Assembly: GCA_041659045.1 (NCBI GenBank)
Contig: JBAZZB010000001.1
Coordinates: forward strand, 198,111 to 262,110
Reading direction: 5' to 3'
From: Patescibacteria group bacterium
GTDB taxonomy: Bacteria; Patescibacteriota; Patescibacteriia; SG8-24; DYFX01
DNA: 64,000 nt
Numbering within the stretch: the stretch's first letter is position 1; every line of letters starts with the position of its first letter. Below, piece by piece: positions 4,992-47,896 of the stretch. A model generated the notes under the pieces. It was given only the letters and a program-made list of their open reading frames with translations. It was not told the origin of the DNA and did no database searches. The translations under genes were made by a program, and so were the position numbers.

Positions 4992-6386
4992 ATGGCACTC
5001 GATCTCGGACACGTGCATCGTATTCATTGTGTCGGTATTGGCGGCATCGGCGTTTCTGCCGCCGCTAAGTTTTTGCGTTTACAAGGAAAGGACGTGAGCG
5101 GTTCCGATACGACGCGTTCCGTCGTGACGGCTGATGCTGAGCGCGCCGGTGTGCGCGTGGTGGAGCCACTTGCCGAGAACATCACCCCAGACATCGATCT
5201 CCTCATCTATACGTCCGCCGCGCCGGAGACGCAGCTTGAACGCCAAGCGGCGGCTGCCTTCGGTATCCCGCAGTTCAGTTATTTCGAATTCCTCGGATTG
5301 TTGTCCGAGGGGTACAAAACAATTGCGATCTCCGGCACGAATGGAAAATCGACGACAACCGCGATGCTTGCGCTCATGCTTGAGAAAGCGGGCCTGGACC
5401 CGACCGTCATTGTCGGAAGTCGCGTGCCGAGTTTCGAATACGGAAACCTCCGCGTTGGAAAAAGCAATCTTTTTGTCGTTGAAGCTTGCGAATATCGCGA
5501 GCAGTTCATGAGTCTCTCTCCTTCGATGGTCGTGGTCACAAAAATCGTTGAAGATCACCTCGACTATTACCGCGATCTCGCGCATATCCAAGAAACCTTC
5601 AAGGCGTTTGCCGCGAAGGTACCAGCAGAAGGATCGCTTATTTGGAATGCGGATGACGCGGCGAGCCGCGAGACATTCAGCGGTTTCGAGCAATCAAACG
5701 GAACATTCGGTTTTTCAAAAGAGGCAGAGGTGCGCGCCGAACAGCATGAAACCGCCGAGGGTGTTCAGCGGTTTGATGCTGTCTTTAAGGACGGTGTCGT
5801 TTGGCACGGTTTGGAGATGCATGTTCCAGGGGCATTCAACGTCTTAAACGCGCTTGCGGCGATCGCTGCGGCGCGTTCGCTTGGAGCGAGCGAGGTGGCC
5901 GTGCGCGAGGCGCTGGCTTCCTTTGCCGGTATTTGGCGTCGCTTTGAAAAAGTTGGCGAGCGATATGGTGCGCCTGTTATTTCAGACTATGGACACACGC
6001 CCGACGCGATCGAAGCGACGCTGAAAGCTGCGAAAGAGTTTTTCCCAGGGAAGAAACTGATCGTTGCCTTTCAACCGCACCATCACGACCGCACGCGCAA
6101 ACTCTTCGATGCCTTCATTCCAGCCTTTGATGCCGCAGACACGCTCGTCCTTTCCGAGATCTACGGCGTCGAGGGACGCAAGGAGGGTGAGAGCGAGATC
6201 TCCTCGCGGCAACTGGTGGAAGCGGTCGAAGCGCGCGGGAAGGTGTCAGCCGTCAGCTACGCCGCCACGCCCGACGAAGCTCTGCGTCAACTCGAGGCGC
6301 TTGATACGGAAAATGCTATGATGCTCATTATGGGCGCAGGCGACATCTATTCCATCGCGTATCCACTATGCAGAACATCCCGATGA
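4992..6386 (+). CDS. murC: UDP-N-acetylmuramate--L-alanine ligase
   Basis: 464 aa; N-terminal IHCVGIGGIGVSAAAKFLRLQGKDVSGSD Rossmann region typical of MurC; Mur-ligase P-loop ISGTNGKSTTTAM. Confidence 0.75.
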   Translation: MALDLGHVHRIHCVGIGGIGVSAAAKFLRLQGKDVSGSDTTRSVVTADAERAGVRVVEPLAENITPDIDLLIYTSAAPETQLERQAAAAFGIPQFSYFEFLGLLSEGYKTIAISGTNGKSTTTAMLALMLEKAGLDPTVIVGSRVPSFEYGNLRVGKSNLFVVEACEYREQFMSLSPSMVVVTKIVEDHLDYYRDLAHIQETFKAFAAKVPAEGSLIWNADDAASRETFSGFEQSNGTFGFSKEAEVRAEQHETAEGVQRFDAVFKDGVVWHGLEMHVPGAFNVLNALAAIAAARSLGASEVAVREALASFAGIWRRFEKVGERYGAPVISDYGHTPDAIEATLKAAKEFFPGKKLIVAFQPHHHDRTRKLFDAFIPAFDAADTLVLSEIYGVEGRKEGESEISSRQLVEAVEARGKVSAVSYAATPDEALRQLEALDTENAMMLIMGAGDIYSIAYPLCRTSR

Positions 6387-8578
6387 AACCGCTCGATTCG
6401 TTCCTCTTGAAGCTCGTTCGCTACGGCTTGTTCGCGGTGTTCGCGATCCCGTTTCTTGTTTGGCTGAGCCACCTCTATCCGTGGGTGACTGGCAAGATCT
6501 TGAGTTTTGAAATTATCGTCGCACTGCTCTTCCCGTGCTACGTTCTGCTCGCCTTTCGTCGCAAAGAATTCCGTCCTTCCAAGTCGCCATTCCTCTACGC
6601 GATGCTCGCGTATTTTGCGATCGCGACGCTCTCGATGCTCTTGGGGGATAACGTGAACCGTAGTTTCTGGTCAAAGCCTGACCGTTTGACGGGCTTGTTC
6701 TTCCAATACCATCTCCTCGCCTTTTTCCTGATGGCGGGCGCGACCTGGCGTAAGGTTGTCGTGCAACCTGTGATTGCGGCGACGATTTCAGCAATCATTC
6801 TCTCACTCCACGCGCTCATCCAGGTTGCGCTCCCGGCTGCTGGTGCTGTTGACGTGCGCGGATCCGCGACGCTCGGCAACGCCAGCTATCTCGGGCAGTA
6901 TCTCGTGCCGCACCTGTTCCTCGCGGCGTGGTTGGTGCTCCGTTATTGGAAAACATCGATGCGCTGGCTCTGGCTTGCTGCCGGTGCGGTGGTGATGTTC
7001 GGCATCATCAGCACGAAATCCAAAGGCGCACTCTTGGGTGTGCTGCTTGGCGTGCTCGTCGCCTCACTCATCGCGGCGGTACGCGGTGGTAAACGCGCTC
7101 GGAAATTCAGCTTGATCGGGCTCGGACTCGTCGCCTTGGCCGTTGTCGCCTACCTGATCGGTAACCAGGTGTATCCGTTCAAACGCTGGTTGTACGATGG
7201 ACGCTTGTCGATTCAGTATTTCCAAGAAACGAGCAACTCTCGTAAACTGCTGATCGAAAACGCCATCAAGGGTATTTCGCAGCGCCCGCTTCTCGGTTGG
7301 GGCCCTGAAAACTTTGAGAGCGGCTACTACTACAACTACAATCCGAAGACGCTGGTTTTCGGCGAGTACGAAACGCGCCAGGACCGTCCGCATAACCTCG
7401 TCCTGGAGATGCTGCATAACCTTGGCGTAATCGGCTTCCTGGCCTACGCGGCGGTGTTTGCGTTCGCGGTGCGCTTGGCTGTTTCCAAAAAGCGTGAGGA
7501 TTGGGTGCTTGGTGGTGGCTTGGCTGTCGCTGCCTTCTCACAAGTCGGCACGAACCTTTTCATTTTTGAGACGCCGATGTCGTACTTGGCGCTCTTCTTC
7601 ATGTTCTCCTTGGTTGCGGCCGATGCGGCCTCGCACGAGGAGCGCGAAGAGGGCTCTGATGAATCGACGCAAGCCGCGGTACCGCTCGCGCTTATCGTTG
7701 GCGTGCTGAGTATCTGGTGCCTGTACACAGTTTCAACGACGATCCGCGCCGCGAAGATTACGGCACAGATGATCATGGCCTTGTCCCAACAAGGTCGTTC
7801 GGCCGAAGAGTGGAACGGCATGCTTACGGAATTGCGTAAAAATGAATCTCCGTTTTACGAACGCCATATTCGCGCTACGACGTCGCATCTGAGCCAAGCG
7901 CGCGGCGAATATCTTGATGGTCCGTATCTTCCGATTTTGATCGATCTGGCCGACGATGAATATCGGCGCTTCAAAAATCGCAATGACTACGTTCAAGCGC
8001 TCGTCATCTCATCAGCGTACCTGAGTTTCGGGCCGCGTACGCCTGAACAACAGGCTGCGCTCGAAGATGCCGCCGCCCGCGCGGCCGAACGTTCGCCGAA
8101 TCGGCACGAAGTCGAAATCATTCTGGCGCAAATCGCCTGGGAAAAGAATCAGCTCGATGAGGCGGAAAAACATATCGTCCGTTTCCGCGACCTTGATCCG
8201 GGAAACATCCTTGGCGATGCTTGGTGGGTGCGCTGGCAGCTAGAGTTCCGTGACCCTGTCGTAGCAGCCACGTATTTGGCGCAGAAACCGGAAATGAAGA
8301 ACAACCAAGACGCTTGGGATCAAGTCGAATACGGCACGTTGCATCTGCTCAACCAGCGCCGTTGGAAGGATCTCGTTGCCTTGCAGAAAGCTTCCGTTGA
8401 AGCGAAGTCTCGCAACGTCCAATGGGACCTTGTCGGCGCGATTGGTGCATGGGCGCTCGGTGACAAAGCAAAAAGCGATATGATTATCAGCGAGGCGCGC
8501 GCTCTCTATCCAGAGAAACTTGATTTGGTGGAAGCGATCGCCGGCCAGCGCGAAAGTATCGTTACGAACGGCGGCTAA
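6368..8578 (+). CDS. Wzy_C / O-antigen ligase family polytopic membrane protein with an approx. 300-aa C-terminal helical domain
   Basis: 736 aa; at least 10 predicted TM helices in the first approx. 430 aa; O-antigen-ligase-type motif HNLVLEMLHNLGVIGF after the periplasmic loop (GWGPENF); C-terminal soluble helical-repeat region. Confidence 0.6.
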   Translation: MQNIPMKPLDSFLLKLVRYGLFAVFAIPFLVWLSHLYPWVTGKILSFEIIVALLFPCYVLLAFRRKEFRPSKSPFLYAMLAYFAIATLSMLLGDNVNRSFWSKPDRLTGLFFQYHLLAFFLMAGATWRKVVVQPVIAATISAIILSLHALIQVALPAAGAVDVRGSATLGNASYLGQYLVPHLFLAAWLVLRYWKTSMRWLWLAAGAVVMFGIISTKSKGALLGVLLGVLVASLIAAVRGGKRARKFSLIGLGLVALAVVAYLIGNQVYPFKRWLYDGRLSIQYFQETSNSRKLLIENAIKGISQRPLLGWGPENFESGYYYNYNPKTLVFGEYETRQDRPHNLVLEMLHNLGVIGFLAYAAVFAFAVRLAVSKKREDWVLGGGLAVAAFSQVGTNLFIFETPMSYLALFFMFSLVAADAASHEEREEGSDESTQAAVPLALIVGVLSIWCLYTVSTTIRAAKITAQMIMALSQQGRSAEEWNGMLTELRKNESPFYERHIRATTSHLSQARGEYLDGPYLPILIDLADDEYRRFKNRNDYVQALVISSAYLSFGPRTPEQQAALEDAAARAAERSPNRHEVEIILAQIAWEKNQLDEAEKHIVRFRDLDPGNILGDAWWVRWQLEFRDPVVAATYLAQKPEMKNNQDAWDQVEYGTLHLLNQRRWKDLVALQKASVEAKSRNVQWDLVGAIGAWALGDKAKSDMIISEARALYPEKLDLVEAIAGQRESIVTNGG

Positions 8579-9759: not shown

Positions 9760-11979
9760 ATGAAAGTCGTTTTTGCTACCGGCATTTTTCCCCCCGACAT
9801 TGGCGGCCCCGCCACCTCGGTTTCAGCGTTGGCTGAAGCCTGGAGCGCGCGCGGGCACCGGGTTACGGTTGTGACGTATTCAGAGCACGAATCTGACGGG
9901 ATTCGCTCCGCCTATTCCGTCGTTCGTATTCCTCGCGCTCAGGCAGCTTGGAAGCGTTATGTGAACTTCACTCGCGCTGTCTGGCGCGCTTCGGATGAAT
10001 CTGGTCCAATTTTTGCGCAGGACGCCATCGCTTCCGGCTTGCCGGCACTTTGTGTCGCGTGGCTGCGACGCCGCAAACTCATTCTGCGCATCGCTGGGGA
10101 TTTTGCCTGGGAACAGGCGCAGGTAAAATACGGCTACGGCGACTCGCTCGAAAAATTTCAAAACGACTCAAACGTTCCGTTCGTGCCGATGTTGTTGCGT
10201 GCCGTGCAGCGCTTCGTGTACCGACGCGCGGATATGGCGATCGCTCCGAGTCGATACCTTGCCGACGTCTTGCGCGGTTGGGGTGTTCCGGATCGCCGCA
10301 TTCGCATGATCAACAACGGTGTGCATCTGCCGGAGGCTGCAGCACAGCGTGGCAAGTTTCCACATCGCATCGTTGCCGCGGGACGTTTGGTGCCGTGGAA
10401 AAATTTTGACGTGCTGCTCAAAGCGCTGCCGCGCGTGCTCGAACGTTTCCCCGATGCGGAACTCTTTATCGCGGGCGATGGTCCCGAAATGATGCGTTTG
10501 CGCGCACTCGCGAGCGCACCCATGCTTGAACAGCGCGTGACGTTCGCGGGAAAAATGGAACGAGAAGCTCTTTGGAAGATGATTGGAGAAAGCGGCGTCT
10601 TTGCGCTCGTCAGTTCCTACGAGGGTTTTTCGCATCAACTCGTCGAAGCTTCGGCCTGTGGCGCGGCTGTTGTCGCGAGTCGGGCTGGAGGGAATACGGA
10701 ACTTATTGAAGACGGAAAGAACGGGCTCCTGGTCGAACCGGGGGACGCGAATGGTCTCGCCCAGGCCTTGATCCGTTATTTGGAAGACCCGTCGTTCGCC
10801 CGCGCCTGCGCGGACGAAGCCTTGAAAGATTCCGGGCGTTTTTCAATCGAGCGCCAAATTGCGGAAACGTCGGAAACCGTCCTTGGAAAGCCAGGGCTTC
10901 GCGTCGTGCTGGTGAGCCGCGATGGGACGGTCGTCGACTCGTCCTCGCGCACGGCCGCGCGCATGCGTGCGTACGGAGAACGTGTTGATCACTTGCGCGT
11001 CGTCAGTCTCGCCAAACAAGAACCAGCTTCGGTTGAGCTCTCCGCGCGCGTGCATGCCGATGTTATCGATGTGCGCGGCTACCCGCTGCCATGGAGTCTT
11101 GTTCGTCAGGTACGTGAAGCGATCGTGGCCGAGCAGGCGACGCTTGTTGTTGCGCAAGACCCGTTTGAAGCGGGAATCGTTGCTGCCGCGGCTTCTTACG
11201 CCGAGCAGGTTCCTTTTGTTGTCGAAGAGCATGGCGGGGTCTACCTGTCTGACCATTGGCGGCAGGAAACTTTAAAAAACAAGCTTCTTTTTCCCCTCGG
11301 ACTTCGCGTGCTCAAGCGCGCGTCGGGTATTCGCGTTGTGAGCGTGAAAATTGAGGAAGATTTGCATCAGCGCTTGCCCGCCGCTTCGATTACCAGAATC
11401 CCGGTCTATACCGAACCTCGGGTTTGTCGATCGAGCGCGCCCGCGCATGTGTTTGGCTACGTTGGACGTTTTGTGCCGCAAAAGAATCTGTTCGGACTTC
11501 TTGAGGCCTTCGCTATCGTCGCGAAAGCGCTTCCACAAGCGAAGCTTATTCTCGTGGGTGCTGGTCCGTTGGAGAATGCGCTACAGGCACGCTCGTTCGT
11601 GCTTGGAGTGTCAGGACGCATTGAATGGGTTGCGCACACGGAAAGCGTCGATGCCATTTATGAGCGCATCGGAACACTCGTACTTTCTTCGTGGTACGAA
11701 GGTTGGGCGCGTGTCGTGCCGGAGGCAATGTCGTGCGGCATACCAATTGTGATGACTAACGTCGGCTGCGCGAACGAGCTTCCGCGCAATGGTGTCGAAG
11801 GCTACGTTGTTCCGGTTGGAAACGACGAGGTTTTGGCCAAAGCGATGATCGATATCGTGCAATCCGGAAAACATGGCTTGATGGGGGCGGCCGCCAAACG
11901 ACGCGTTGAAACATCGCCGACGCCGCAAGAGCTCGGTGATCGCCTCGTTGATTTTTGGAAGCGACACGGTTCCGCCTAG
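9760..11979 (+). CDS. tandem double GT4 glycosyltransferase
   Basis: 739 aa; two complete GT4 units, each with its own E-x7-E motif (SSYEGFSHQLVEASACGAAVVASRAGGNTELIEDGKNGLLVEPGD and SSWYEGWARVVPEAMSCGIPIVMTNVGCANELPRNGVEGYVVPVGN). Confidence 0.7.
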   Translation: MKVVFATGIFPPDIGGPATSVSALAEAWSARGHRVTVVTYSEHESDGIRSAYSVVRIPRAQAAWKRYVNFTRAVWRASDESGPIFAQDAIASGLPALCVAWLRRRKLILRIAGDFAWEQAQVKYGYGDSLEKFQNDSNVPFVPMLLRAVQRFVYRRADMAIAPSRYLADVLRGWGVPDRRIRMINNGVHLPEAAAQRGKFPHRIVAAGRLVPWKNFDVLLKALPRVLERFPDAELFIAGDGPEMMRLRALASAPMLEQRVTFAGKMEREALWKMIGESGVFALVSSYEGFSHQLVEASACGAAVVASRAGGNTELIEDGKNGLLVEPGDANGLAQALIRYLEDPSFARACADEALKDSGRFSIERQIAETSETVLGKPGLRVVLVSRDGTVVDSSSRTAARMRAYGERVDHLRVVSLAKQEPASVELSARVHADVIDVRGYPLPWSLVRQVREAIVAEQATLVVAQDPFEAGIVAAAASYAEQVPFVVEEHGGVYLSDHWRQETLKNKLLFPLGLRVLKRASGIRVVSVKIEEDLHQRLPAASITRIPVYTEPRVCRSSAPAHVFGYVGRFVPQKNLFGLLEAFAIVAKALPQAKLILVGAGPLENALQARSFVLGVSGRIEWVAHTESVDAIYERIGTLVLSSWYEGWARVVPEAMSCGIPIVMTNVGCANELPRNGVEGYVVPVGNDEVLAKAMIDIVQSGKHGLMGAAAKRRVETSPTPQELGDRLVDFWKRHGSA

Positions 11980-12968
11980 GCTTCTACGTCGTAGAAGCCT
12001 TTTTCGTTCTTTGAAAACTCGCGAATTTGTTCAAGAGGGCTCACGCAAAGGTCATTCGGTTTCAAGACAAAAGGAGCAATGTGCTCGTGGACGAGCAGGA
12101 GGCCACCGACGCAGCGCACGAGCCATTTTCCGTTTGGAAAGACTTCAAGAACAGTTCCGGCGCCTAACGTGGCTTGTCCATATTCGATCGTGTCCGTCTC
12201 AAAAATGGCAGCGCGCATGATCGTGACTTTTTCACCGCGTACGTACGTGAAAGCTCCGTTGAAAGGCGGTGCGACGGCGCGAATGAAGCGTTCGATCTCT
12301 ACGAGTCCGGTGCGCCAGTCGATCAGGCTGTCTTCGGGATTGCGTTTCGGATAGAACGTCGGCATTTCGTCGCTTTGTGCTTTCAGCGCAAAACTCCCAT
12401 CGCAAAGCGCGGCAAGATTTTTGGTGATGAGGCGTTTCATCGCCAAGGCGTTTTTGAAATGCATCGTTTCGGCGGTGTCTTCCGGACGGATCGTAAATTT
12501 GAACGTGTCCAGTACGGCGCCGGAATCGACGCCGGCATCGTAGCGAAAAAGATTGGTGTAAAACGCGTTGCGGCCTTCCAGAATCGACCAGTTCATGGGT
12601 GAACGGCCGCGTCCCTTCGGCAGGTTCTCGGCGCTGCCATGCATGCCGAAGGCTCCGATACAGATGAAATCGAGAACATCGGCGGGAATCAGGCGCTGCC
12701 AGCCGATCACGAATGCCAAGTCGAGTTTCATGCCACGGATCGCTTCGATGTCTTCCGCGTCTTTCAAGGTATAGCTGCGCGCGACGTAGCAGGGGATCCG
12801 GTTAGCTTCGGCGAAAGCGCGCAGATCTTCATAATCGGCAACCTCGTTTTTGGCAGCAAGCTCAGGGGAGATCGTAATGAGATGCTGGACGCCTCCCTGC
12901 GCCAAGAGCGCCTCGATCATGAAGCGCGTCGTTTGCTTGCAGCCGAAGATGGCAATCTTCGCGCTCAT
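11976..12968 (-). CDS. sugar N-formyltransferase (Fmt/ArnA N-terminal-domain family)
   Basis: 330 aa; formyl_trans_N-type motif HGSAENLPKGRGRSPMNWSILEGRNAFYTNLFRYDAGVDSGAVLD; last gene of the coupled minus-strand operon. Confidence 0.7.
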   Translation of the reverse strand: MSAKIAIFGCKQTTRFMIEALLAQGGVQHLITISPELAAKNEVADYEDLRAFAEANRIPCYVARSYTLKDAEDIEAIRGMKLDLAFVIGWQRLIPADVLDFICIGAFGMHGSAENLPKGRGRSPMNWSILEGRNAFYTNLFRYDAGVDSGAVLDTFKFTIRPEDTAETMHFKNALAMKRLITKNLAALCDGSFALKAQSDEMPTFYPKRNPEDSLIDWRTGLVEIERFIRAVAPPFNGAFTYVRGEKVTIMRAAIFETDTIEYGQATLGAGTVLEVFPNGKWLVRCVGGLLLVHEHIAPFVLKPNDLCVSPLEQIREFSKNEKGFYDVEA

Positions 12969-13672
12969 GAAGAAATGCGACTACGATACGGGATGCAATT
13001 GTCCGCGACATGCGTTTGGAAGCGGTTGGTGCGCTCGACGACGAAACGATCGAGGAGATCCACGTTGTCTTTGGTGTTCGAGAACATCCACCAGAGCGGA
13101 TGAATGAGGAGATGAATGGCTTTCGTTTGCTTCCATTCTTCCGTTTCGAAAGGGTGCCCGAAGCGAAACATGCCTTGGGAATCGGAAACGTATTTGATGT
13201 CTTTAAAGTATTTGTTCTGGTAGGTGTGCTCGACGCCGCAAAGAGGCGCGTCGCAGCTTTTTAAAAAATCGTTCGGACGATGGACGCTCATGACCGCGAC
13301 CGGCACGCCGAAATACGATTCAAAAAGCGTTTTCTCTTCAAGAAAGCCTTGCTCGATGTTCTCATAGTGCGTCGGATCGAAATGGATGCTGACGCGGTGT
13401 CCACGGGCATGAATCGAGCGAATGTATTCAGCGTTCGCTCGCGAAAACGGATTGTAGGAATCGGAACGCATCAGGAAAAAATACGTCGCTTTCACGCCGA
13501 GCGCGTCTTCCGCCAGCGACATATCGTGCGCCAGCTTCACGTCAAAATCGACGTCGTGACGCACAATCAGTTCTCCGGGGGCACCCGTTGCTTGATCGAA
13601 AAAAATCGGGCGATACCCGTTGAGGGTGAAGCCTTGGAGGAGTGCGGGATATTTTCCGAGATAGCTTTCCAT
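12965..13672 (-). CDS. polysaccharide deacetylase-like (CE4-like) protein, putative
   Basis: Start taken at internal Met (MESYLGKY) at 13672, abutting the DegT stop; contains RHDVD and HARGHRVSIH His/Asp-rich motifs reminiscent of metal-dependent deacetylases; family call is tentative. Confidence 0.4.
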   Translation of the reverse strand: MESYLGKYPALLQGFTLNGYRPIFFDQATGAPGELIVRHDVDFDVKLAHDMSLAEDALGVKATYFFLMRSDSYNPFSRANAEYIRSIHARGHRVSIHFDPTHYENIEQGFLEEKTLFESYFGVPVAVMSVHRPNDFLKSCDAPLCGVEHTYQNKYFKDIKYVSDSQGMFRFGHPFETEEWKQTKAIHLLIHPLWWMFSNTKDNVDLLDRFVVERTNRFQTHVADNCIPYRSRISS

Positions 13673-13676
13673 GTGT

Positions 13677-14702
13677 TCAGTGAATCGGCAGGCTGATGAC
13701 GTGCTTGGCCGCGAACTCGGAATGCGGGAGCAGCTTGTGCTTTCCGAACAATCCGATATACGCCTGCTGCCTGTATACCGGGGTTTCGTAATAGATTGCG
13801 GATGGAATGCCTTCGCGTTCCAATGCTTGGGCAAAGGCCTTGCGATTGCGGACAGTCAGCGTAAAGACGTTATAGGTATGCCCGGGCTGCTCAGGCATCG
13901 CAAGTACGTCCGGATGTTCACGAAATTTTTTGAACCACGTTTCGGCTTGAGAACGGCGGACGTCGAGATCTTCCTCCAGCCACGTCATTTTTTCAAGTAA
14001 AACCGCAGCTTGGATCGTGTCGAGTCGGCTGTTGCCGCCGATGATTTGGTGCACGTATTTTTTCGGCTGTCCGTGGTTCTTGAGCAGCTTAAAACGTTTC
14101 GCGACCGCCGATGAGCGAATGGTGACAGCGCCGCCGTCGCCAAAGCCGCCAAGATTCTTGGTTGGAAAAAAACTGAAACACCCGACATCGCCGAAAGTGC
14201 CCGTACGCTTGCCGTCGTGCTTCGCGCCATACGATTGAGCGCAGTCTTCAACGAGTTTCAGGCGGTATTTCTTGCAAAGGCGCACGATCGGCTTCATGTC
14301 GCAGGCGAGTCCATAGAGATGTACGACAAGTACGGCGCGCGTTCTCTTGGTCATCTTCTTTTCAATCTGCGCGGCATCAATATTGAATGTGCGCGGATCA
14401 ATGTCGACAAGAACGGGTTTCGCGCCGACGGTCGCAATCGCTTCAATGGTCGCGAAGTAGGTGAAAGCCGTCGTAATGACTTCATCGCCCGGTCCGATAC
14501 CGAGTGCCTTGAGACCGAGGGTAAGCGCGTCGGTGCCGGAGTTGCAGGTGATCGTCTCGACGCCAAAATAGTCCGTCATGCGGCGCTCGAGTTCGGTGGT
14601 TTCGGGGCCTCCGATAAATTGTTCAGACGCGACGACGCGTCCGATGCGCGCCAAGAGGCGATCGGTCCTCTCTTTGGAAAGTTTTTGCGAAAAGAATTTC
14701 AT
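13677..14702 (-). CDS. DegT/DnrJ/EryC1/StrS-family PLP-dependent sugar aminotransferase (WbpE-like)
   Basis: 341 aa; fold-type I aminotransferase with PLP-lysine context FSFFPTKNLGGFGDGG; start overlaps the upstream stop (ATGA). Confidence 0.85.
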   Translation of the reverse strand: MKFFSQKLSKERTDRLLARIGRVVASEQFIGGPETTELERRMTDYFGVETITCNSGTDALTLGLKALGIGPGDEVITTAFTYFATIEAIATVGAKPVLVDIDPRTFNIDAAQIEKKMTKRTRAVLVVHLYGLACDMKPIVRLCKKYRLKLVEDCAQSYGAKHDGKRTGTFGDVGCFSFFPTKNLGGFGDGGAVTIRSSAVAKRFKLLKNHGQPKKYVHQIIGGNSRLDTIQAAVLLEKMTWLEEDLDVRRSQAETWFKKFREHPDVLAMPEQPGHTYNVFTLTVRNRKAFAQALEREGIPSAIYYETPVYRQQAYIGLFGKHKLLPHSEFAAKHVISLPIH

Positions 14703-15430
14703 GCGGATGTGGGTCCATCGTAGGTAATTTCGTCGTCGCCGAGTCGGCGCGGACCGCGCACGGTTTCACGTTCCTCAATAATTTGCGCTAGGAGTCCTGG
14801 GAGGCGTGCCAGCGCAAAGATACCGCGCATCGGTTCGGGACCGAAGCCCATGTCGAGCAGAACGGCCGCCATAGCTCCGTCAACGTTGAGTGGTAGAGGT
14901 TTTTTCGCTTCGATGTTCAACGCAGATTCCACGCGTTCGGCGAATGCTGAATATGGACCGTAGACACCCAAGGTTTTGGCGTGCGCGAAGAGCGCTGCGC
15001 TGCGACGGTCCTTCGCGAGCAACTTGTGCCCGTATCCGGGCAAGCGGCGGCTGTTGGCACGGGCGCGAGAAACGACGCTGGTAGGATCCTCCTGAGCTTG
15101 CGCAAGGAAAAAACGGGCCGCATCCTCGATCGCACCGCCGTGGAGCGTGCCTTGTGCCAAGATGCCGGCGGCCAAGGCAACATGAGGATCGTTGCCGGAA
15201 GAAGCGACCGCGCGGGCAGTGATCGAAGAAACAGGCGCGGCGCCGTGATCGATCGCGGCGACAAGTACGGCTTCAAGCATGGCGGCTTGTTCTTTGGTCG
15301 GCCAACTTTCGCGCAACAAAAGCCACGTGACTTCCGTAAACGACCGCGTGCCGATCAAAGAGATCAGGTCGTGGCCGCGAAGGATCTCGCGTTCCTTGGT
15401 GACGTGAGAGATGCGTGTGTGGATCTTCAT
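14699..15430 (-). CDS. small citrate-synthase-like protein (citryl-CoA lyase-like)
   Basis: 243 aa; citrate-synthase-type catalytic motif PGYGHKLL (cf. GFGHRVY); the size matches the C-terminal citrate-synthase domain of ACL and CCL; stop and start overlap both neighbours by ATGA. Confidence 0.55.
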   Translation of the reverse strand: MKIHTRISHVTKEREILRGHDLISLIGTRSFTEVTWLLLRESWPTKEQAAMLEAVLVAAIDHGAAPVSSITARAVASSGNDPHVALAAGILAQGTLHGGAIEDAARFFLAQAQEDPTSVVSRARANSRRLPGYGHKLLAKDRRSAALFAHAKTLGVYGPYSAFAERVESALNIEAKKPLPLNVDGAMAAVLLDMGFGPEPMRGIFALARLPGLLAQIIEERETVRGPRRLGDDEITYDGPTSA

Positions 15431-16323
15431 GCGTGGACGGTCGGGTGAATCAATTCTACGAGATCTTCGAAGCGTTCGGCAACCAAGGCTCCGGCGTCCT
15501 GGAGCGCCGCCATTTTCTCACGAGCCGACTGTCCTTTGCCGACGATCGCACCGGCATGTCCGACAACGGTACCTGATGGAAGCGTTTCGGCGAAGGCTCC
15601 TCCGATATGCACTGCGAGCGGCTTCGTGAAGCCGCCGTCCTGCAGTAAGGACACGATTTCCCGTTCGTAATTCACGCCCTGTTCGGCGTAGATCACGACG
15701 GCTTTCGTGGTCGGGTCGGCTTCCATTTCCTTCAGCACGTCAGCGTAGGTCGTGCCGATCAAGAGTTCGCCTCCGACGTGGACAGCGGTGCTCTGTCCAA
15801 GACCGGCCTGGCGCACCAGCCAAGAAAGCTCGTTGGTCATGCCGCCCGAGCGCGAGATGACGCCGATCGGTCCAGGCGCGTAGATTTCATCGACCAAAGG
15901 CCCGCCGACGACTCCGAGGCGACCGATGCCAGGGACGAGGCAGCCGAGTGATCCGGGTCCGATAATCCGCGCGCCGCGTTCGCGCGCCGCAGCGAGGCAG
16001 TAGGCTGCGTCTTTGAGCGGCATTTTTTCCGTCATGACGTTCACGAGCGTAATGCCAGCTTCCAGCGCTTCAAGGATTGCGGCTTTTGCGGCGGCAGGCG
16101 GAACGTAGATTGCCGAGACAGTGGTTTCGGGAAAAGACGTAAGCGCGTCACGGACGGTTTCAAAAACTGGCGCGCCATCGGCGACGTGGCCGCCCTTGCC
16201 CGGCGTGACGCCGCATGGCACGCGCGTGTGATACGCCCGCATGGCCGTGAGTGCCCGCAAGCCCTCCTTACCGGTGATACCCTGGATCAACACCGAAGTG
16301 TTTTCCGTGAGCAAGATACTCAT
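15427..16323 (-). CDS. succinyl-CoA synthetase alpha-like CoA-binding/ligase subunit
   Basis: 298 aa; N-terminal MSILLTENTSVLIQGITGKEG (cf. SucD MSILIDKNTKVICQGFTG); phospho-histidine loop VVGHAGAIVGKG conserved. Confidence 0.75.
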   Translation of the reverse strand: MSILLTENTSVLIQGITGKEGLRALTAMRAYHTRVPCGVTPGKGGHVADGAPVFETVRDALTSFPETTVSAIYVPPAAAKAAILEALEAGITLVNVMTEKMPLKDAAYCLAAARERGARIIGPGSLGCLVPGIGRLGVVGGPLVDEIYAPGPIGVISRSGGMTNELSWLVRQAGLGQSTAVHVGGELLIGTTYADVLKEMEADPTTKAVVIYAEQGVNYEREIVSLLQDGGFTKPLAVHIGGAFAETLPSGTVVGHAGAIVGKGQSAREKMAALQDAGALVAERFEDLVELIHPTVHA

Positions 16324-17390
16324 AGCATCAACGCTTTCATGCGCGCCACGGCATCGTTCATCGAGGTCTCTTTGCCAAAAAGTTCGATCTTCAAACCATT
16401 GCGTTCCGCGCAGGCGCGCAGGAGTTCAAGACCTTCGCGTTCACGCGGGCCAGCGCGGCGGACCACGATCGGATAGGAAGGCTTGAGGGCATCGAGCGCC
16501 TCGGCAAGACCCTCGAACGTTTCCTTGATGTCGGTGAAATTAGCGATGCCGCCGATGATCAGCGCGCCGCGCAGATCCGGCTTCGACAACACGAGCGTCG
16601 CGAGTTCGCGGACTTTTTCTTTCGGTGGGTTCCCGGAATATTCAGCGTAATTGGCCGCATGGAGTCCGGCACGCTGCATGGCATCCATGTTCACGAGGCT
16701 GGCGCCGCCGCCCGAAAAAAGCGTGGCGATGTCGCCGGAGAGCGGATGAAAGGACGCGCCGAAGGCCGAGTGATCATGCACGGCGTCATCGAGCGCGACT
16801 TTCGCATCGAGCGCCACGAGCGTGCCGTCAGCGCGCTCAGCAACGGGGTTCACTTCGATCTGCCTCGCATCTTCTTCAAAAAAAGCTTTAACGATTTTCT
16901 CGCAAAATTCCGGCAGTGCTTTGGCGATCAGGCCCAGCTCGCCGAAAATTGTCTCGAGCGAGCGGCGAGGATCGCGCGGATCAAGCGGAAAGGAACGAAC
17001 GTCGTCGCGCGTCTCGATGCCGGAGCCGCCATGTCTGCCGACGAGCAAAAGCGGACCGTGCACTGCGACATCGTAGACGCACGAGACGTACAGTTCTTGC
17101 GTCGAGACGATATGTTCCTCGAGAAGCGCGCTTGTCACGGGTTGGCCGTTCAGGCCGTCTTTCAACCAGCCGGACACGGCCTTTTCGACGTCGGAAACGG
17201 ATTCGCAAAAAACCACGCCGCCGTGCGCGGCGCGGTTCCCCGCGAGCACCTGCGCCTTGGCGACCCAGCAGCCACCGAGGCTCTTCGCGGCTGCTTCGAT
17301 CTCTTCGACGCGTGAAAGGAGGATTCCGGCAGGAATCGCGATGCCGTGCTTTGCGAGAAGCGCCTTACCTTCGTGCTCGTAGACGTTCAT
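16320..17390 (-). CDS. succinyl-CoA synthetase beta-like ATP-grasp subunit
   Basis: 356 aa; N-terminal [22 protein letters not shown] (cf. SucC MNLHEYQAKQLFARYGLP); ATP-grasp fold throughout. Confidence 0.75.
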   Translation of the reverse strand: MNVYEHEGKALLAKHGIAIPAGILLSRVEEIEAAAKSLGGCWVAKAQVLAGNRAAHGGVVFCESVSDVEKAVSGWLKDGLNGQPVTSALLEEHIVSTQELYVSCVYDVAVHGPLLLVGRHGGSGIETRDDVRSFPLDPRDPRRSLETIFGELGLIAKALPEFCEKIVKAFFEEDARQIEVNPVAERADGTLVALDAKVALDDAVHDHSAFGASFHPLSGDIATLFSGGGASLVNMDAMQRAGLHAANYAEYSGNPPKEKVRELATLVLSKPDLRGALIIGGIANFTDIKETFEGLAEALDALKPSYPIVVRRAGPREREGLELLRACAERNGLKIELFGKETSMNDAVARMKALML

Positions 17391-18438
17391 ACTCTTCCTT
17401 CACGCGCCGCACGAGCTTTTTGAGATTGTGATGTTCAACGACGATCGAGCGCAGCGACTCTCCCATGCGCGCGCGGTCTTCGGCCGACAACGAGAGGCAG
17501 CTGTTGAGCTTTGCCGCAAAGTCCTCGGGACTCCATTCGTAGAAAAGGTACGGCAGCCACTCCCCGAGGTACTCGTTGAAGACGGGTGTGCAGACGAGTG
17601 TTGGAACGCCGCATGACATCGACTCAAGAAAATTCTTTCCGGCGCCGCCGCCGCGCTGCATGGCGACAAACGCCGCTGAACCGCACAAGTAGGGGAGAAT
17701 CTCCCGGTTCGGCACCGGGCCGACGAATTCAAATGCGTCCGACAATCCTGCCGCCGCGATGCGCTCTTTGAGACCGGCGACGTAGGTGACATCGGCATCG
17801 GTGAGTGGGCCGCCAATCATTTGCACAACGAAATCGCGTCGCCCGTAGTTGTTTCTCAACAACGTGCAGGCTTCGACCAGCAAATCGTATTCCTTAATAG
17901 GGGAGAGGCGACCGACGCTCAAAATAACTTTCCGTTCGGGGACGCGCGTCGGTACCGGGCAGCTGAAGAGATCGGGATCGACGCCGTGGCCGACCGCCAT
18001 AAACTTGGGTGAATCGCTGCCACGGAAGCTTTCCTTTGAAACAGAGACAACGCCGTTGCCAATCCAAAGTGCCATGAGCCGCAGCCAGCTGCCTCCTTTG
18101 TGCGCGAACCAGAGCAGTGTCGTTTTGCCCATGAGGCGCCAGAAGAGTCCGCCGAGCGTGACGTACTCCGAGTTCATGTGCACGAAAACGCAATCGTACT
18201 CCTTGCGCAGGCCGAAAATATATTTGTAGAAACGCCAAAGATACTGCAAGCGCGAGCGGTGTTCCTCTTTACCCAGCGAGTGCACGCGCACGTTCGCGGG
18301 AAGATCGTACGCGCCTTTTTTCAAACAGATTACCTCGACGGATTCGAAGACTTCCGCGAAGCGTCTGATCCATTGGTGGATGGCGCCGAGGACGTCGTCG
18401 TTCTTGTCGACAATTTGCGTGATGATCAGGAGCTTCAT
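17365..18438 (-). CDS. glycosyltransferase (GT4-like)
   Basis: Start taken at [10 protein letters not shown] (18438), abutting the LbH gene stop; GT-B architecture; C-terminal Gly-rich donor-binding region. Confidence 0.6.
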
Positions 18439-19025
18439 GCGAGTCGCACTATTCCGCTTTCGAGACGATAGGCCTTTTCGCAACGCGCACAGGATGCCGC
18501 ATTGTTCTCAAACGCGAGTCTTCCACCACATTCGCAAATCCAGCCGATCGGTTTGGCCGGCACGCCGACGACAATGGCGTAGTCGGGGACATCCTTCGTA
18601 ACAACGCAACCAGCGCCAATGAGCGCGTGCGCGCCAATCGTTGTGCCGCAAACAATCGTCGCGTTGGCACCGATCGAGGCGCCTGTCTTAAGTAGCGTCG
18701 GTGACCACGAGCCAAACTTCGGGTAGTCGCGCTTCGGATATTTGGCACGCGGCACGAGATCATTCGTGAACACAACGGAGGGGCCGACGAATACGAAATC
18801 CTCGAGTGTCACGAGATCCCAGACGTCGATATTCGCTTCAAGCTTCACACCGTTACCGAGTACGGCTTTGCCGAAAATCGTGCAGTTGTGGCCGATACCG
18901 CAGTTCTCTCCGATCCTGGCGCCGCTCACGACCTGGCTGTGACGCCAAATTTTGGTACCCGAACCGACCGACGCGTCATTGGCAACGTCGGCGGTTGGAT
19001 GGATCGTTACGCCGTCATGCGGCAT
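18435..19025 (-). CDS. hexapeptide-repeat (LbH) N-acyltransferase (WbpD/PglD-like)
   Basis: 196 aa; hexapeptide-repeat-rich (left-handed beta-helix type) sequence; C-terminal C-x-C...C-x2-C ribbon-like tail. Confidence 0.8.
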
Positions 19026-19812
19026 ACGCGGTATAGAGGGAATCGACGAGCTCGACGGAGGGCAATGTTTCGATCGGGCGCACGCCTTTGCCTTCGAGGA
19101 GGTCGAGATAGACGAGGCGGTGCAAGTTTTCGTACGACAAATTATCCTTCGACGAGAAATTGTAATCCTTGCCGTTCACGACGAAGCGGCGCTGCTGGTT
19201 GGCACGATCTCGATAGATGCCGACCGTCCAGGTGCAGCGGTAGCGCTCGCCTTCGATCACGCCCTTGCCAACCAAGTCGTTTAATTCCGTCGTCGTCACT
19301 TTCGTCGGCGCTCCGAAGATGTGTTGGAGCAGATCGAAATAATGGATGCCGATGTTGTAGAGGGGGCCGCCAGAGCGCCTGTTGTCGCCTTTCCACGTGC
19401 GGAAATATTTCTCGTCGCGATAGACGGAGATATTCATGTCGATCTCGAAGGTACCGCCAGCAGCGACCTGTGCGCGCAGTTCATGCACCATCGGATGATG
19501 ACGCAGCTGCATAACGGTGAACACCTTGTCGAAACCGGCGAGCGATTTGACCGATTCTGCGGAAATGCCGAGAGGCTTCTCACACAAAACAAGCTTGCCG
19601 GCCTCGGCCGCCATGCGCGCCATCGGCACGTGCAGGTCGTTCGGGCCGAGAATCACGATGCAGTCGGTTTTCGGGTTGTCCATCACGCCGGTTTTCCAGC
19701 GGTCTTCGCCGTACGCGGTATTCACCACGTCGATCAATTTTCCACCCAAAGCTTCAATCGCTTCGGCGTGTCGTGGCATGATGAAACCGGTTCCAATGAG
19801 GCTGAAGTTCAT
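19015..19812 (-). CDS. Gfo/Idh/MocA-family NAD(P)-dependent oxidoreductase (WbpB-like sugar 3-dehydrogenase)
   Basis: 265 aa; N-terminal Rossmann [18 protein letters not shown]; first gene of the coupled minus-strand operon. Confidence 0.8.
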
Positions 19813-19820: not shown

Positions 19821-19849
19821 ATTATCGGCGCGAAAGGCGGTTTCGTCAA
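19821..19849 (-). promoter_or_regulatory. candidate promoter giving a near-leaderless transcript for the 19812-to-11976 operon
   Basis: Minus strand reads TTGACG (plus 19844-19849), 17-nt spacer, GATAAT (plus 19821-19826), then 8 nt to the ATG at 19812; no SD. Confidence 0.4.
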
Positions 19850-19892
19850 TCAGATCTAGGCAAAAACCGTTTTTTTTGGCAGGATAGGGTTG

Positions 19893-22241
19893 ATGAATAT
19901 CGCCTACGTCGCCAACGTCCGCCTGCCGACTGAGAAGGCGCACGGGCTGCAGATCATGTCTATGTGCCGCGCGTTCGCGAGGAACGGCCACAAGGTGCGG
20001 CTCGTCGTTCCGAAGCGTAAGAACATCCACGATGAATCACCGTGGGCGTTTTACGGTTTCCGTGAGGAGTTCGAAATCGTGCACGTGCCGATCTATGATT
20101 TTATTTCGCATGATCGTGTGCTTGGTCGCGTCGCGTTATGGCTCAACACGCTGCAATTCCTGATTGCTGCGCGCCGCACTGTCCGACGTTTCAAACCGGA
20201 CGTCGTGTATGCCCGCGAAGCGTGGTATGGGAGCTTGGCACCGGAAGTGCCGCATGTTTTTGAAGCGCACGACTTTACCTCGCGCGTGACGCCGTTGCAT
20301 CGCCGTTGGTGGAAGCGCGTTGCGCGTATTGTGACCGTTACGAACGGTCTCAAGAAAGTTTTTGCGGCACAGGGCGTGCCGGAGGAAAAAATGACCGTTG
20401 CTCATGATGGCGTCGACGAAGCGACGTTCGCCGTGCGTGATACAAAAGCGGAAGCGCGCGCTATCCTCGGATTGCCGAGCGAGAGTTTTCTTGCGATCTA
20501 TACCGGACATTTGTACGACTATAAAGGTGCAGACGATTTGTTAGAGGCTGCGGTCTCTGTACCGCAGCACGTCAAAATTCTCTTTGTTGGCGGACGCCCA
20601 AACGACCTCGCGCGTCTGAAAGCGCGAGCAGCCGAACTTCGAACGACGAACGTGCTCTTCGCGGGGCAGGTGCCGCACGCCAAGATCCCGACGTATCTTC
20701 GCGCCGCCGATGTCGCCGTGCTGCCGACGCGCGGAACCGACCGTCACGCGTCGGAGTTTTTGTCGCCGCTCAAATTGTTTGAATATCTGGCGGCCGGCAA
20801 GGCTTTGGTTGCGACCGATCTTCCGTCGGTGCGTGAAGTATTGTCAGGCACGACTGCACTTTTTGTGCCCCCGTCTGACCCCGCGGCCTTGGCAAAAGCT
20901 TTGAGCACGCTCGCAGAGTCACCAGCGCGCGTAGCTTCTTTGGAGCAGGAGAGTTTGCGGCTCGCTGCCACGCATACCTGGACGCGTCGCGCGGAGAGTG
21001 TGCTCGCAGGCCTGAAAGCTTCCAGAGAGGCGCAGCCTTGGTACGCGCGATATCGCGTCGAGTTGCTCTGTGCCGTGCTGGCTTTCGCTCTTCGGTCGCT
21101 GTACGTCGCATACGTCCCCCAACTCAATATTGAAGGCGGCGACGGTACGATTTACCTCAGTCTGTCCGATTACGTGCGCGGCCTTGTCGAGACCGTTCCG
21201 AAAAATGACCTCCGCTTTTTCCCTGTCGGGTATCCGTATTTCTTGGCGGCGATCCGTGGCATTTTTGGCAACGATCTTCTCTGGATCCGTCTTGCGCAGT
21301 CTCTGCTTTCAGCTGCGACTGTCTTCGTTGGCGCACTTGCCGCGCGTCATTGGCTCGGCCGTAAAACCGGACTCCTTGCGGGAGTCCTGCTCGCCACCTA
21401 TTCACCGCTTGTTCTTGAAAGCGGCATTATCTACACCGAGACGCTCTACACATTCCTGCTGACGAGCGCAGTTGTTGTCGCTGTTCTGGCTGTGCAACAC
21501 GAGCGCCTGCGCTACGCCTGTCTTGCTGGTTTTGGTTTTATGTTGGCGGGCCTTACGCGCGAGCTCGGTTTTTATCAAGCGTTGTTGTTTGGTGGCTGGG
21601 CGCTTCTTTCACGGCGTTCGTGGAAGCTCGCGGCGCTGCTCGTGATCCCTACACTTCTCGCGTTTGGTGGGTTGTCTTTGCGAAATACGGCTATTGCCGA
21701 AAAGCACGCGCTGCGCGAGCAGCCGCTCGTTTCGAAAAACTACGAGCAAGCGCTTTTTGAGCCGACGCTCCTCGAGTTCTTGTTCTCGCCGTCACGCTGG
21801 CATTTCTACGTCGAAGGCACGTATCTGTATTGGCGCTTTCCACATCGTTTGGGCGACGTTGGAGCAGGGGAGCCGGTCGAGGATAAAACGAATCCTGATG
21901 GCGATGTCGTGTACCACCTGAATCCCAAGGCTGGATATTTCATGGCGGTGCAACCCATGCGCCAGGTGATCGTCAAATGGCTCTTGGTGCTCACGCACTG
22001 GTTTGTCCTGTTTCTTGCCGCCTATGGTTTCTGGCGTGGGAAGTTCTCGCGAGAAGTGAAAATTGGTTTCGCGCTCGCGATCCTCTTCGCTTTCGGCACG
22101 ATCATGCTCGGCGGCATGCATCGTTTGCAAGCCTTCGAGGGGTTCGAACCGCTCGCGCGCTATCGATTCCCAACCGAGCCGCTTATTCTTCTTCTCGCTG
22201 TCGCCGGCGCACAGGCGCTCGAGCTTCGCCGCAAGCGCTGA
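19893..22241 (+). CDS. fusion of GT4 glycosyltransferase and polytopic GT-C-like (PMT/ArnT-like) membrane domain
   Basis: N-terminal approx. 370 aa GT4 (MMNIAYVANVRLPTEKAHGLQ...) then approx. 400 aa with 10 or more TM helices; the track ORF starts with TTG at 19890, ATG at 19893. Confidence 0.65.
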   Translation: MNIAYVANVRLPTEKAHGLQIMSMCRAFARNGHKVRLVVPKRKNIHDESPWAFYGFREEFEIVHVPIYDFISHDRVLGRVALWLNTLQFLIAARRTVRRFKPDVVYAREAWYGSLAPEVPHVFEAHDFTSRVTPLHRRWWKRVARIVTVTNGLKKVFAAQGVPEEKMTVAHDGVDEATFAVRDTKAEARAILGLPSESFLAIYTGHLYDYKGADDLLEAAVSVPQHVKILFVGGRPNDLARLKARAAELRTTNVLFAGQVPHAKIPTYLRAADVAVLPTRGTDRHASEFLSPLKLFEYLAAGKALVATDLPSVREVLSGTTALFVPPSDPAALAKALSTLAESPARVASLEQESLRLAATHTWTRRAESVLAGLKASREAQPWYARYRVELLCAVLAFALRSLYVAYVPQLNIEGGDGTIYLSLSDYVRGLVETVPKNDLRFFPVGYPYFLAAIRGIFGNDLLWIRLAQSLLSAATVFVGALAARHWLGRKTGLLAGVLLATYSPLVLESGIIYTETLYTFLLTSAVVVAVLAVQHERLRYACLAGFGFMLAGLTRELGFYQALLFGGWALLSRRSWKLAALLVIPTLLAFGGLSLRNTAIAEKHALREQPLVSKNYEQALFEPTLLEFLFSPSRWHFYVEGTYLYWRFPHRLGDVGAGEPVEDKTNPDGDVVYHLNPKAGYFMAVQPMRQVIVKWLLVLTHWFVLFLAAYGFWRGKFSREVKIGFALAILFAFGTIMLGGMHRLQAFEGFEPLARYRFPTEPLILLLAVAGAQALELRRKR

Positions 22242-40369: not shown

Positions 40370-40370
40370 T

Positions 40371-41264: not shown

Positions 41265-41267
41265 ATC

Positions 41268-47884: not shown

Positions 47885-47896
47885 GCTCTCAAGTAT

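Follow-up and report, generated by a model that had tools for sequence, protein, structure and literature searches.

A densely packed Patescibacteria operon combining amino-sugar genes, a citryl-CoA synthetase/lyase trio and a candidate acyl-exchange pair

The 64,000-nucleotide stretch analysed here (the window; contig JBAZZB010000001.1 of assembly GCA_041659045.1, positions 198,111 to 262,110), from a Patescibacteria group bacterium, carries nine minus-strand genes, g1 to g9, which probably constitute a leaderless, translationally coupled operon in a surface-glycan locus. Three modules describe the operon better than a single pathway does, namely a set of amino-sugar genes (module A; g1, g2, g3 and g7), a trio resembling the two-enzyme form of ATP-citrate lyase (ACL) (module B; g4 to g6), and a putative deacetylase paired with a formyltransferase homologue (module C; g8 and g9). 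Drawing on what the genes encode, the residues they conserve, their order, their gain and loss as modules and their genomic associations, we propose, with a probability of roughly 0.55, that a sugar core, a citrate-fed supply of acetyl-coenzyme A (acetyl-CoA) and an acyl exchange are brought together in this operon; what the enzymes act on, which way the trio reaction runs, which position is deacylated and which acyl group is added are predictions of this model. The enzyme families are all of known kinds, with the citrate-lyase trio being the most interesting element and the g8/g9 cassette the second.

Gene modules and the citryl-CoA trio

Loci harbouring homologues of the trio were compared using one genome per species, with neighbouring genes labelled by BLAST. 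All nine genes were present in three related loci (L012, L013 and L014), and a fourth (L011) carried ten, with an extra Hexapep gene in front. Another four (L006, L008, L015 and L016) encoded g1 to g7 only, whilst L007 encoded the trio only, having neither g1, g2 and g7 nor a g3 orthologue (an other-strand family 4 glycosyltransferase, GT4, was just 35% identical); a g3 orthologue was found in L006, L008 and L011-L016. Thus g1, g2, g3 and g7 were present or absent jointly, as were g8 and g9, and the trio was the only part that was constant across the related glycan loci. An earlier sequence-only reading of this DNA had assigned all nine genes correctly at the family level, as judged by domain and structure matches, and had presented them as a single unit for one amino-sugar pathway. 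One packed operon was indeed found, but its three modules differ in their distribution among relatives, and the amino-sugar label suits six of the nine genes, the ACL-like trio having been given no role.

The trio gave clear matches to citryl-CoA synthetase and citryl-CoA lyase. The product of g4 matched ATP-grasp_2 (4e-27) and Citrate_bind (1.8e-30), and its best match was the Hydrogenobacter large subunit of citryl-CoA synthetase (6hxq_B, 3.8e-41). That of g5 contained CoA_binding, Succ_CoA_lig and Ligase_CoA domains and matched succinate-CoA ligase alpha at 8e-72, under the equivalog cut-off; its VVGHAGAIV segment includes GHAGA, which, from what is known of succinyl-CoA synthetase, we take to be the phosphohistidine loop. 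The g6 product exceeded the cut-off of the citryl-CoA lyase model NF004869 (218.7 bits against 212) and matched the solved citryl-CoA lyase 6hxp at 1.5e-47.

In human ATP-citrate lyase (ACLY), citrate is contacted by residues 280-281, 307-310, 343-348 and 379 (PMC11365397). These positions aligned in g4 to S-G, Y-S-G-N, G-I-A-N-F-T and R, such that G281, Y307-S308-G309, I344 to T348 and R379 of ACLY are kept. In g6, residues D61-H62, H97, H135, D184 and R209 were invariant in 24 homologues, falling in DH, LHGG, GYGH and NVD motifs and at an Arg; these are presumably the counterparts of the two catalytic His residues and the catalytic Asp of citrate synthase and of its oxaloacetate-binding Arg. 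The trio therefore looks catalytically competent and citrate-specific from its sequence, and we favour its assignment as a two-enzyme ATP-citrate lyase set. In this model, g4 to g6 would convert citrate, ATP and CoA to citryl-CoA, and then to acetyl-CoA and oxaloacetate. The CcsA/CcsB and Ccl enzymes of Hydrogenobacter thermophilus (6hxq and 6hxp) comprise the same three polypeptides and domains and are the best solved matches; however, they serve the reductive tricarboxylic acid (TCA) cycle, whereas the trio described here resides in amino-sugar operons of organisms with no obvious TCA cycle, and its large subunit is 356 aa in length compared with 429 aa in Hydrogenobacter.

A second genomic context of the trio was found among more distant relatives. 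Lyase homologues with 41-59% identity were nearly all from Patescibacteria (e.g. Magasanikbacteria, Uhrbacteria and Paceibacter), and 37 such loci had at least 5 kb of upstream sequence, in which neighbours on the same strand as the trio were counted. A CofD-family (YvcK-type) protein was encoded upstream of the trio in 32 of the 37 loci, GlmS in 31, a GNAT protein of approximately 110 aa in 28 and an NTP-transferase (GlmU-like uridylyltransferase) in 23, with the GNAT gene lying -8 to +9 nt from the trio in 12 of 32 distances. Downstream, a TIGR00375/MJ0043_C protein was found in 30 of the 56 loci with enough sequence. NCBIfam searches indicated that the neighbouring GlmS is bona fide (777 bits), that the CofD-family protein is of the UDP-GlcNAc-binding YvcK type, and that the NTP-transferase matches GlmU residues 3-242 only, this being the uridylyltransferase half without the acetyltransferase half. 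In L001 (2319-12157), L004 and approximately 30 further loci, these genes form a conserved string consisting of a TrmB regulator, the GlmU-like uridylyltransferase, GlmS, a HAD/beta-phosphoglucomutase-like protein, the YvcK-type CofD protein, the GNAT, the trio and the TIGR00375/MJ0043_C protein. As judged from these matches, the string resembles a UDP-GlcNAc route in which GlmU is split and acetyl-CoA is supplied from within.

The GlmS/YvcK/GNAT neighbourhood was found in none of 12 trio loci from outside the candidate phyla radiation (CPR). A Planctomycetota trio locus had a GNAT gene (Acetyltransf_3; L079:10733-11278) immediately downstream, and another non-CPR locus had an aconitase gene (L090:12676-14643) two genes downstream of the trio.

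The element shared by both Patescibacteria contexts is an amino-sugar N-acetyltransferase adjoining the trio, either the GNAT or the WlbB-like g2, and hence the trio is proposed, through guilt by association, to be an acetyl-CoA source for amino-sugar N-acetylation. Acetyl-CoA from the trio would feed this step, and there are probably few other uses for acetyl-CoA in these organisms. Homologues of citryl-CoA synthetase and citryl-CoA lyase (CCL) have been noted in CPR and DPANN genomes with no amino-sugar role assigned (10.1101/2022.10.25.513756). A linkage between the trio and amino sugars was not described in the searchable literature on the trio in CPR.

It is also conceivable, although we regard it as unlikely, that the trio belongs to housekeeping central metabolism, supplying acetyl-CoA or oxaloacetate or running in reverse for ATP, with no specific link to the sugar. 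Such a role would agree with what appears to be a single copy of the trio in a close relative whose genome is complete, with its retention in L007 in the absence of WbpB/D/E-like genes, and with the unrelated contexts of non-CPR homologues, one of them near aconitase. However, the start and stop codons of the trio overlap those of sugar genes on both sides, these overlaps are conserved, and in distant Patescibacteria the trio again lies by amino-sugar genes (GlmS, YvcK and GNAT, as counted above); two independent contexts centred on an N-acetyltransferase are hard to credit to chance. Very improbable, in our view, is the activation by the trio of a carboxylic acid other than citrate, with a non-acetyl acyl-CoA then being attached by g2 or another enzyme. 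Unusual N-acyl amino sugars are common in bacterial glycans, and g4 has both a faster rate of evolution than g5 and g6 and a deletion, yet the citrate-contact residues of ACLY are conserved in g4, the lyase retains invariant His, Asp and Arg residues that presumably match the catalytic motifs of citrate synthase, and g2 is similar over its full length to the acetyl-CoA-dependent WlbB.

Amino-sugar genes and the g8-g9 pair

The genes of module A had close matches amongst solved structures. The g1 product contained the N- and C-terminal GFO_IDH_MocA domains of Pfam and an EKP motif, and its top matches were WbpB structures from two organisms (3oa2, 5.7e-26; 3o9z, 6.8e-25); its orthologues were 265-272 aa in length, and g1 itself, at 265 aa compared with 312-318 aa for the solved WbpB chains, is shortened in its N-terminal Rossmann part. 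Over its full length (residues 6-196), g2 matched 3mqg (5.1e-49), which was deposited as a lipopolysaccharide biosynthesis acetyltransferase and which we take to be WlbB. The aminotransferase encoded by g7 has an FSFFPTK lysine motif and matched WbpE (3nu7) over residues 13-341 at 1.7e-78, with three unnamed DegT-family entries scoring better. From these similarities, module A is predicted to convert UDP-N-acetylglucosamine (UDP-GlcNAc) to UDP-GlcNAc3NAc and to transfer that residue. Under this scheme g1 would oxidise C3 of UDP-GlcNAc, g7 would transaminate the 3-keto sugar to give UDP-GlcNAc3N, g2 would acetylate the new amine using acetyl-CoA to give UDP-GlcNAc3NAc, and the GT4 encoded by g3 would transfer this residue onto the growing glycan.

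In Pseudomonas aeruginosa and Bordetella, UDP-ManNAc3NAcA is made by the Wbp/Wlb pathway through the steps of WbpA, WbpB/WlbA, WbpE/WlbC, WbpD/WlbB and WbpI/WlbD. The same core of Gfo/Idh/MocA dehydrogenase, DegT aminotransferase and beta-helix N-acetyltransferase is present here, but the dehydrogenase is approximately 50 residues shorter, a GT4 gene and the citrate-lyase trio are situated between the acetyltransferase and aminotransferase genes, and the deacetylase/formyltransferase-like pair has been appended; the host, too, is different, Patescibacteria not being known to possess an outer membrane. Neither a UDP-GlcNAc 6-dehydrogenase (WbpA, UDPG_MGDP_dh) nor a 2-epimerase (WbpI, Epimerase_2) was found in the open reading frames (ORFs) scanned across the window, and neither family was found in the flanks of six related loci. 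A hexose is thus likelier than a uronic acid, due to the absence of WbpA and WbpI from the window. The GnnA/GnnB enzymes of Acidithiobacillus ferrooxidans convert UDP-GlcNAc to UDP-GlcNAc3N for lipid A with no uronic step. Their oxidation and transamination chemistry and their substrate are the same as those proposed here, whilst their product goes to lipid A rather than to a surface glycan.

Of the biochemical predictions in the sequence-only reading, that of a UDP-2-acetamido-3-amino intermediate which is then N-acylated is well supported by the WbpB, WlbB and WbpE structure matches. Its choice of a uronic or hexose intermediate narrows to the latter as likelier, the uronic acid being unsupported by the scanned ORFs, and the comparison that it proposed with the P. 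aeruginosa wbp cluster revealed WbpB-, WbpE- and WbpD-like proteins but no WbpA or WbpI type in the ORFs scanned across the window. The same reading had raised an acetamidino group through an AsnB/WbpG-like amidotransferase at 27557. This suggestion was not supported, in that the protein at 27557 belongs to the glutamine-dependent AsnB family (TIGR01536, 342 bits, above the cut-off), no WbpG/WbuX-type family was among its matches, and its gene belongs to another transcription unit, 7.7 kb from the operon.

A classical Wbp/Wlb pathway to a 2,3-diacetamido-2,3-dideoxy-hexuronic acid, with WbpA and WbpI encoded elsewhere and the AsnB-like protein amidating the uronic carboxylate, is doubtful. A uronic acid is indeed the substrate of the characterised proteins closest to g1 and g7, an AsnB-family amidotransferase is encoded within the same glycan locus, and in L010 (Rhodobacteraceae) a UDPG_MGDP_dh gene stands ahead of the same set of enzymes. 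Nonetheless, UDPG_MGDP_dh and Epimerase_2 are absent from the scanned ORFs of the window and from the six related-locus flanks, and g1 is shortened to 265 aa.

No usable match to g8 was obtained in Pfam, including the carbohydrate esterase family 4 (CE4) model PF01522, in NCBIfam or in PDB sequences, and since sequence searches gave nothing, its identity rests on structure prediction and Foldseek. An AlphaFold2 model built from 34 homologues had a mean confidence (pLDDT) of 94.4, and its best Foldseek matches in the PDB were CE4/NodB deacetylases and esterases (probability 1.00, E down to 1e-5, TM 0.42-0.46). Four motifs, RHDxD, GHxxxxHFDP, HRP and LxHPxWW, were invariant, and the HDxD, HxxxxH, HRP and LxHP portions resemble CE4 motifs 1, 2, 3 and 5; in g8, the CE4-type Asp-His-His metal site and the catalytic Asp and His are putative. 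With 1183 cluster representatives at E <= 1e-30, the family is a large one, and the named homologues among the matches listed were all annotated as 'hypothetical protein'. The g8 domain was found fused to UDP-GlcNAc 2-epimerase (Epimerase_2; six cases), DegT and GNAT domains, which places g8 at the nucleotide-sugar level, beside an acyltransferase. Proteins with fused g8 domains were P0423, P0429, P0437, P0443, P0462, P0465, P0483, P0494 and P0361. In one protein, the g8 domain was fused to EAD11 and TRADD-N, both of which are domains typically seen in conflict systems.

The g9 product contained Formyl_trans_N (PF00551) and Formyl_trans_C (PF02911) domains, with the ArnA formyltransferase domain being its best match (3.3e-31). 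The N-L-H of ArnA aligned to G-M-H in g9, with a 2-residue insertion after HGS, and His110 and Asp148 were kept; the FGMHGS motif, including Gly108, was invariant in 27 homologues from several phyla. The N-formyltransferase assignment made from the sequence at first sight thus stands with respect to both domains and the ArnA match, but the canonical catalytic Asn is replaced by Gly. On its domain content g9 is a formyltransferase homologue, for which formyl transfer is plausible.

It was found that g8 and g9 adjoin each other in every locus inspected, including those of other phyla, and the best-120 lists of the two families had at least 25 same-sized contigs in common. In L009 (Bacteroidota) the pair occurs without any aminotransferase within 8 kb, and therefore the amine for acylation in that locus must come from deacetylation; in L010 the gene order is WbpA-WbpB-WbpD-g8-g9-WbpE, WbpA being the UDPG_MGDP_dh gene. 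These arrangements suggest that the pair exchanges N-acetyl for N-formyl on a nucleotide sugar, and we favour g8 as a soluble nucleotide-sugar N-deacetylase, the product of which is re-acylated, on the basis of its predicted fold and genomic associations. Removal of the 3-N-acetyl added by g2 would be futile, making the 2-N-acetyl the more economical target. Hence g8 would N-deacetylate a UDP-HexNAc-type sugar, with the 2 position as the most economical choice, and g9 would attach a new acyl group to the amine so released, N10-formyl-tetrahydrofolate being the presumed formyl donor, yielding UDP-GlcNFo3NAc here. Alternatively, g8 and g9 may act on another UDP-HexNAc used elsewhere in the glycan. 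This arrangement was not described in the searchable literature on WbpB/WbpE with a formyltransferase and on 2- and 3-formamido sugars.

The Arn pathway joins a DegT aminotransferase, a formyltransferase and a CE4 deformylase (ArnB, the ArnA formyltransferase domain and ArnD), and homologues or fold relatives of all three co-occur here. By analogy, g9 could formylate the 3-amine made by g7, thereby driving the unfavourable transamination, with g8 deformylating after glycosyl transfer to leave a free amine and its positive charge. This is quite unlikely, even though the ArnA formyltransferase domain is the closest solved relative of g9 and g7, g8 and g9 are consecutive in the operon. It ranks below acyl exchange because of L009, in which the pair has no aminotransferase nearby, and because of the fusions of g8 to soluble nucleotide-sugar enzymes and GNAT, which fit deacylation followed by re-acylation. 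The gene order also favours this sequence of events over formylation and deformylation, as g8 is upstream of g9 with its stop codon overlapping the g9 start, and the operon already includes g2, a dedicated N-acetyltransferase for the same 3-amine. Furthermore, g9 has Gly where ArnA has Asn102, and g8 is undetected by PF01522, a model that ArnD matches.

Several observations weigh against the three-module account. For the trio, g4 has an in-frame deletion of 30 residues near residue 205, between its ATP-grasp and citrate-binding parts, which is common to the window and the closest relative (L012) and absent from all other homologues aligned, albeit under purifying selection (dN/dS, the ratio of non-synonymous to synonymous substitution rates, of 0.125). 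The complete 1.17-Mb genome CP129476.1, with a lyase identity of 91%, had one trio locus among the 80 best, and with an apparently single copy the trio may serve the whole cell and not the operon alone; L007, moreover, retains the trio without g1, g2 and g7. The host group is not known to have a TCA cycle, which makes the source of citrate a difficulty, and no TCA genes were found in the window. In the sugar core, the substrate on which WbpB and WbpE have been characterised is a uronic acid, UDP-GlcNAcA, and a gene for WbpA could lie beyond the window. In module C, the structural match of g8 to CE4 is distant (TM of approximately 0.45), although the predicted fold is of that type, and g9 lacks the Asn that is catalytic in ArnA, Fmt and PurN, rendering formyl transfer uncertain.

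Operon layout and surrounding window

The coordinates of the nine genes, none of which contained an internal stop, are provided in Table 1 together with their junctions, for which spacings were computed using ATG starts for all nine genes. Upstream of the ATG of g3 and of g8 the frame is open as far as a TTG; ATG starts were preferred for both because homologue lengths agree (the GT4 of L006 and that of L012 have 357 aa, and most of the nearest homologues of g8 have 235 aa).

Table 1. Genes and sequence elements of the operon, with coordinates in the window.
Feature	Coordinates	Strand	Description	Junction with next gene
promoter-like site	19821..19849	-	TTGACG 19849-19844, 17-nt spacer, GATAAT 19826-19821	
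g1	19015..19812	-	compact 265-aa Gfo/Idh/MocA oxidoreductase, WbpB/WlbA-like, candidate UDP-HexNAc 3-dehydrogenase	11-nt overlap
g2	18435..19025	-	left-handed beta-helix N-acetyltransferase, WlbB/WbpD-like; Hexapep	4-nt overlap (ATGA)
g3	17365..18438	-	GT4 glycosyltransferase, 357 aa from ATG at 18438; Glycos_transf_1	26-nt overlap
g4	16320..17390	-	citryl-CoA synthetase large (beta-type) subunit; ATP-grasp and ACL-type citrate-binding domain	4-nt overlap (ATGA)
g5	15427..16323	-	citryl-CoA synthetase small (alpha-type) subunit; CoA-binding domain and presumed phosphohistidine loop GHAGA	4-nt overlap (ATGA)
g6	14699..15430	-	citryl-CoA lyase, truncated citrate-synthase fold	4-nt overlap (ATGA)
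g7	13677..14702	-	DegT-family pyridoxal phosphate-dependent aminotransferase, WbpE-like; DegT_DnrJ_EryC1 5e-102	4-nt gap
g8	12965..13672	-	235-aa CE4/NodB-fold hydrolase (predicted), proposed nucleotide-sugar N-deacetylase	4-nt overlap (ATGA)
g9	11976..12968	-	ArnA/Fmt-like formyltransferase homologue, N- and C-terminal domains	
hairpin	11978..12000		perfect 10-bp, in last g9 codons; T-run then on + strand	

The close packing of the genes by 4-, 11- and 26-nt overlaps or gaps of 4 nt or less, as had been claimed from the sequence, was borne out, and the overlap series 11/4/26/4/4/4 was found again in orthologous loci with 80-91% CCL identity, demonstrating that the packing has been inherited and is not due to chance. 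A clear Shine-Dalgarno sequence within the 30 nt upstream of the start was identified for g4 only (GAAGGAAG), which fits coupling by termination and reinitiation for most of the other genes. All nine genes were under purifying selection, with dN/dS values of 0.04-0.13 relative to the 91% relative.

The promoter-like site upstream of g1, with 8 nt between the end of GATAAT and the ATG, had likewise been noticed from the sequence; it was confirmed, and it is conserved in five related loci. It is the sole 10/12 consensus match on both strands of 8.8 kb, and the best in the region. An alignment of the five orthologous upstream regions showed a diverged spacer but no variation in TTGAC, in GATAAT or in how far they lie from the ATG; L011 keeps both hexamers and the ATG distance although its extra hexapeptide-repeat gene stands first. 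Given that the -10 hexamer is 8 nt from the ATG, a leaderless mRNA or one with a leader of 1-2 nt is predicted for g1, and this first gene would be leaderless or nearly so. An AAGGAGG within the short interval between the -10 hexamer and the ATG of L011 tempers the leaderless reading. Within the 80 nt that separate the operon from its divergent neighbour, an A8/T5 palindromic tract (19853-19873; CCAAAAAAAACGGTTTTTGCC) immediately precedes the -35 hexamer; it is also present in L006 and could be an operator or a piece of the divergent promoter.

Inside the unit, a weak promoter-like match (TTGCCG-18-TAGAAT, 9/12, 15482-15453) was situated within g5, 22 nt upstream of the g6 start. It was rejected as an internal promoter, the number of promoter-like sites (4, against 2.5 +/- 1.7 in shuffles) being indistinguishable from chance. 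Terminator-like sites, consisting of a hairpin and T-run, were located inside the unit at 17231 and 13619, and such sites totalled 21 on both strands against 12.5 +/- 4.0 in shuffles, approximately 2 standard deviations above. The 3' end of g9 overlaps that of a convergent double-GT4 gene, ending at 11979, by 4 nt, and the hairpin in the last g9 codons is likely the terminator of this convergent gene. No T-run follows that hairpin on the minus strand, leaving the operon itself without a canonical terminator.

The glycan locus around the operon encodes several GT4s, a GT4-PMT_2 fusion, a 736-aa Wzy_C protein, a Bac_transf initiating transferase, methyltransferases and the AsnB-family enzyme, and is flanked by genes encoding a Mur ligase, MurB and SecA. 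A Mur-ligase gene and that of the Wzy_C protein, which resembles O-antigen ligases/polymerases, overlap by 19 nt (4992-8578), and this pairing was found in all related glycan loci (L006-L008 and L012). The fusion, divergent from the operon (19890-22241), is a protein of 783 aa combining GT4 with a PMT_2 membrane domain (GT-C, ArnT-like), and is conserved in relatives.

Elsewhere in the window, a second glycan-type cluster (37287-49392) encodes a SIS protein, a teichoic-acid-type Glyphos_transf protein, a PhyH-like dioxygenase, a CMP-sugar-type cytidylyltransferase, a radical SAM protein, two short-chain dehydrogenases/reductases (SDRs), a xylose-isomerase-like TIM barrel, the nonulosonic acid synthase NeuB and a Wzx-type flippase. 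Other genes encode a SecD with an inserted PPIC-type peptidyl-prolyl isomerase (rotamase) domain (53116-55185) and a TrwB/TraG-like type IV coupling protein with a treble-clef zinc finger (57511-59397). No RNA features were found in the window with Rfam or a tRNA scan.

Implications for Patescibacteria

Patescibacteria are abundant, mostly uncultured and metabolically minimal, and their acquisition of building blocks is poorly understood. We tentatively suggest, at less than even odds, that they have hard-wired a generator of acetyl-CoA of the ATP-citrate lyase type to amino-sugar N-acetylation, the trio lying in most lineages by GlmS, the YvcK-like protein, the uridylyltransferase and a GNAT that could stand in for the missing acetyltransferase half of GlmU, and in this lineage within a WbpB/D/E-type operon, and that g8 and g9 are an undescribed cassette, shared across phyla, for exchanging N-acetyl for N-formyl or another acyl group. 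If this is true, the acetyl groups of cell-envelope sugars would derive from citrate, which these bacteria probably scavenge from a host or their surroundings, and the oxaloacetate co-product might act here as the keto-acid partner of the dehydrogenase or the transaminase.

The link between citrate cleavage and an N-acetyltransferase provides a testable hypothesis on the origin and main use of acetyl-CoA in these organisms, and marks citrate as a candidate host-derived metabolite. The operon would also supply a compact enzyme set for UDP-GlcNAc3NAc, whilst the g8 family and the Gly-variant family of g9 could explain 2-N-formyl or other re-acylated amino sugars in surface glycans.

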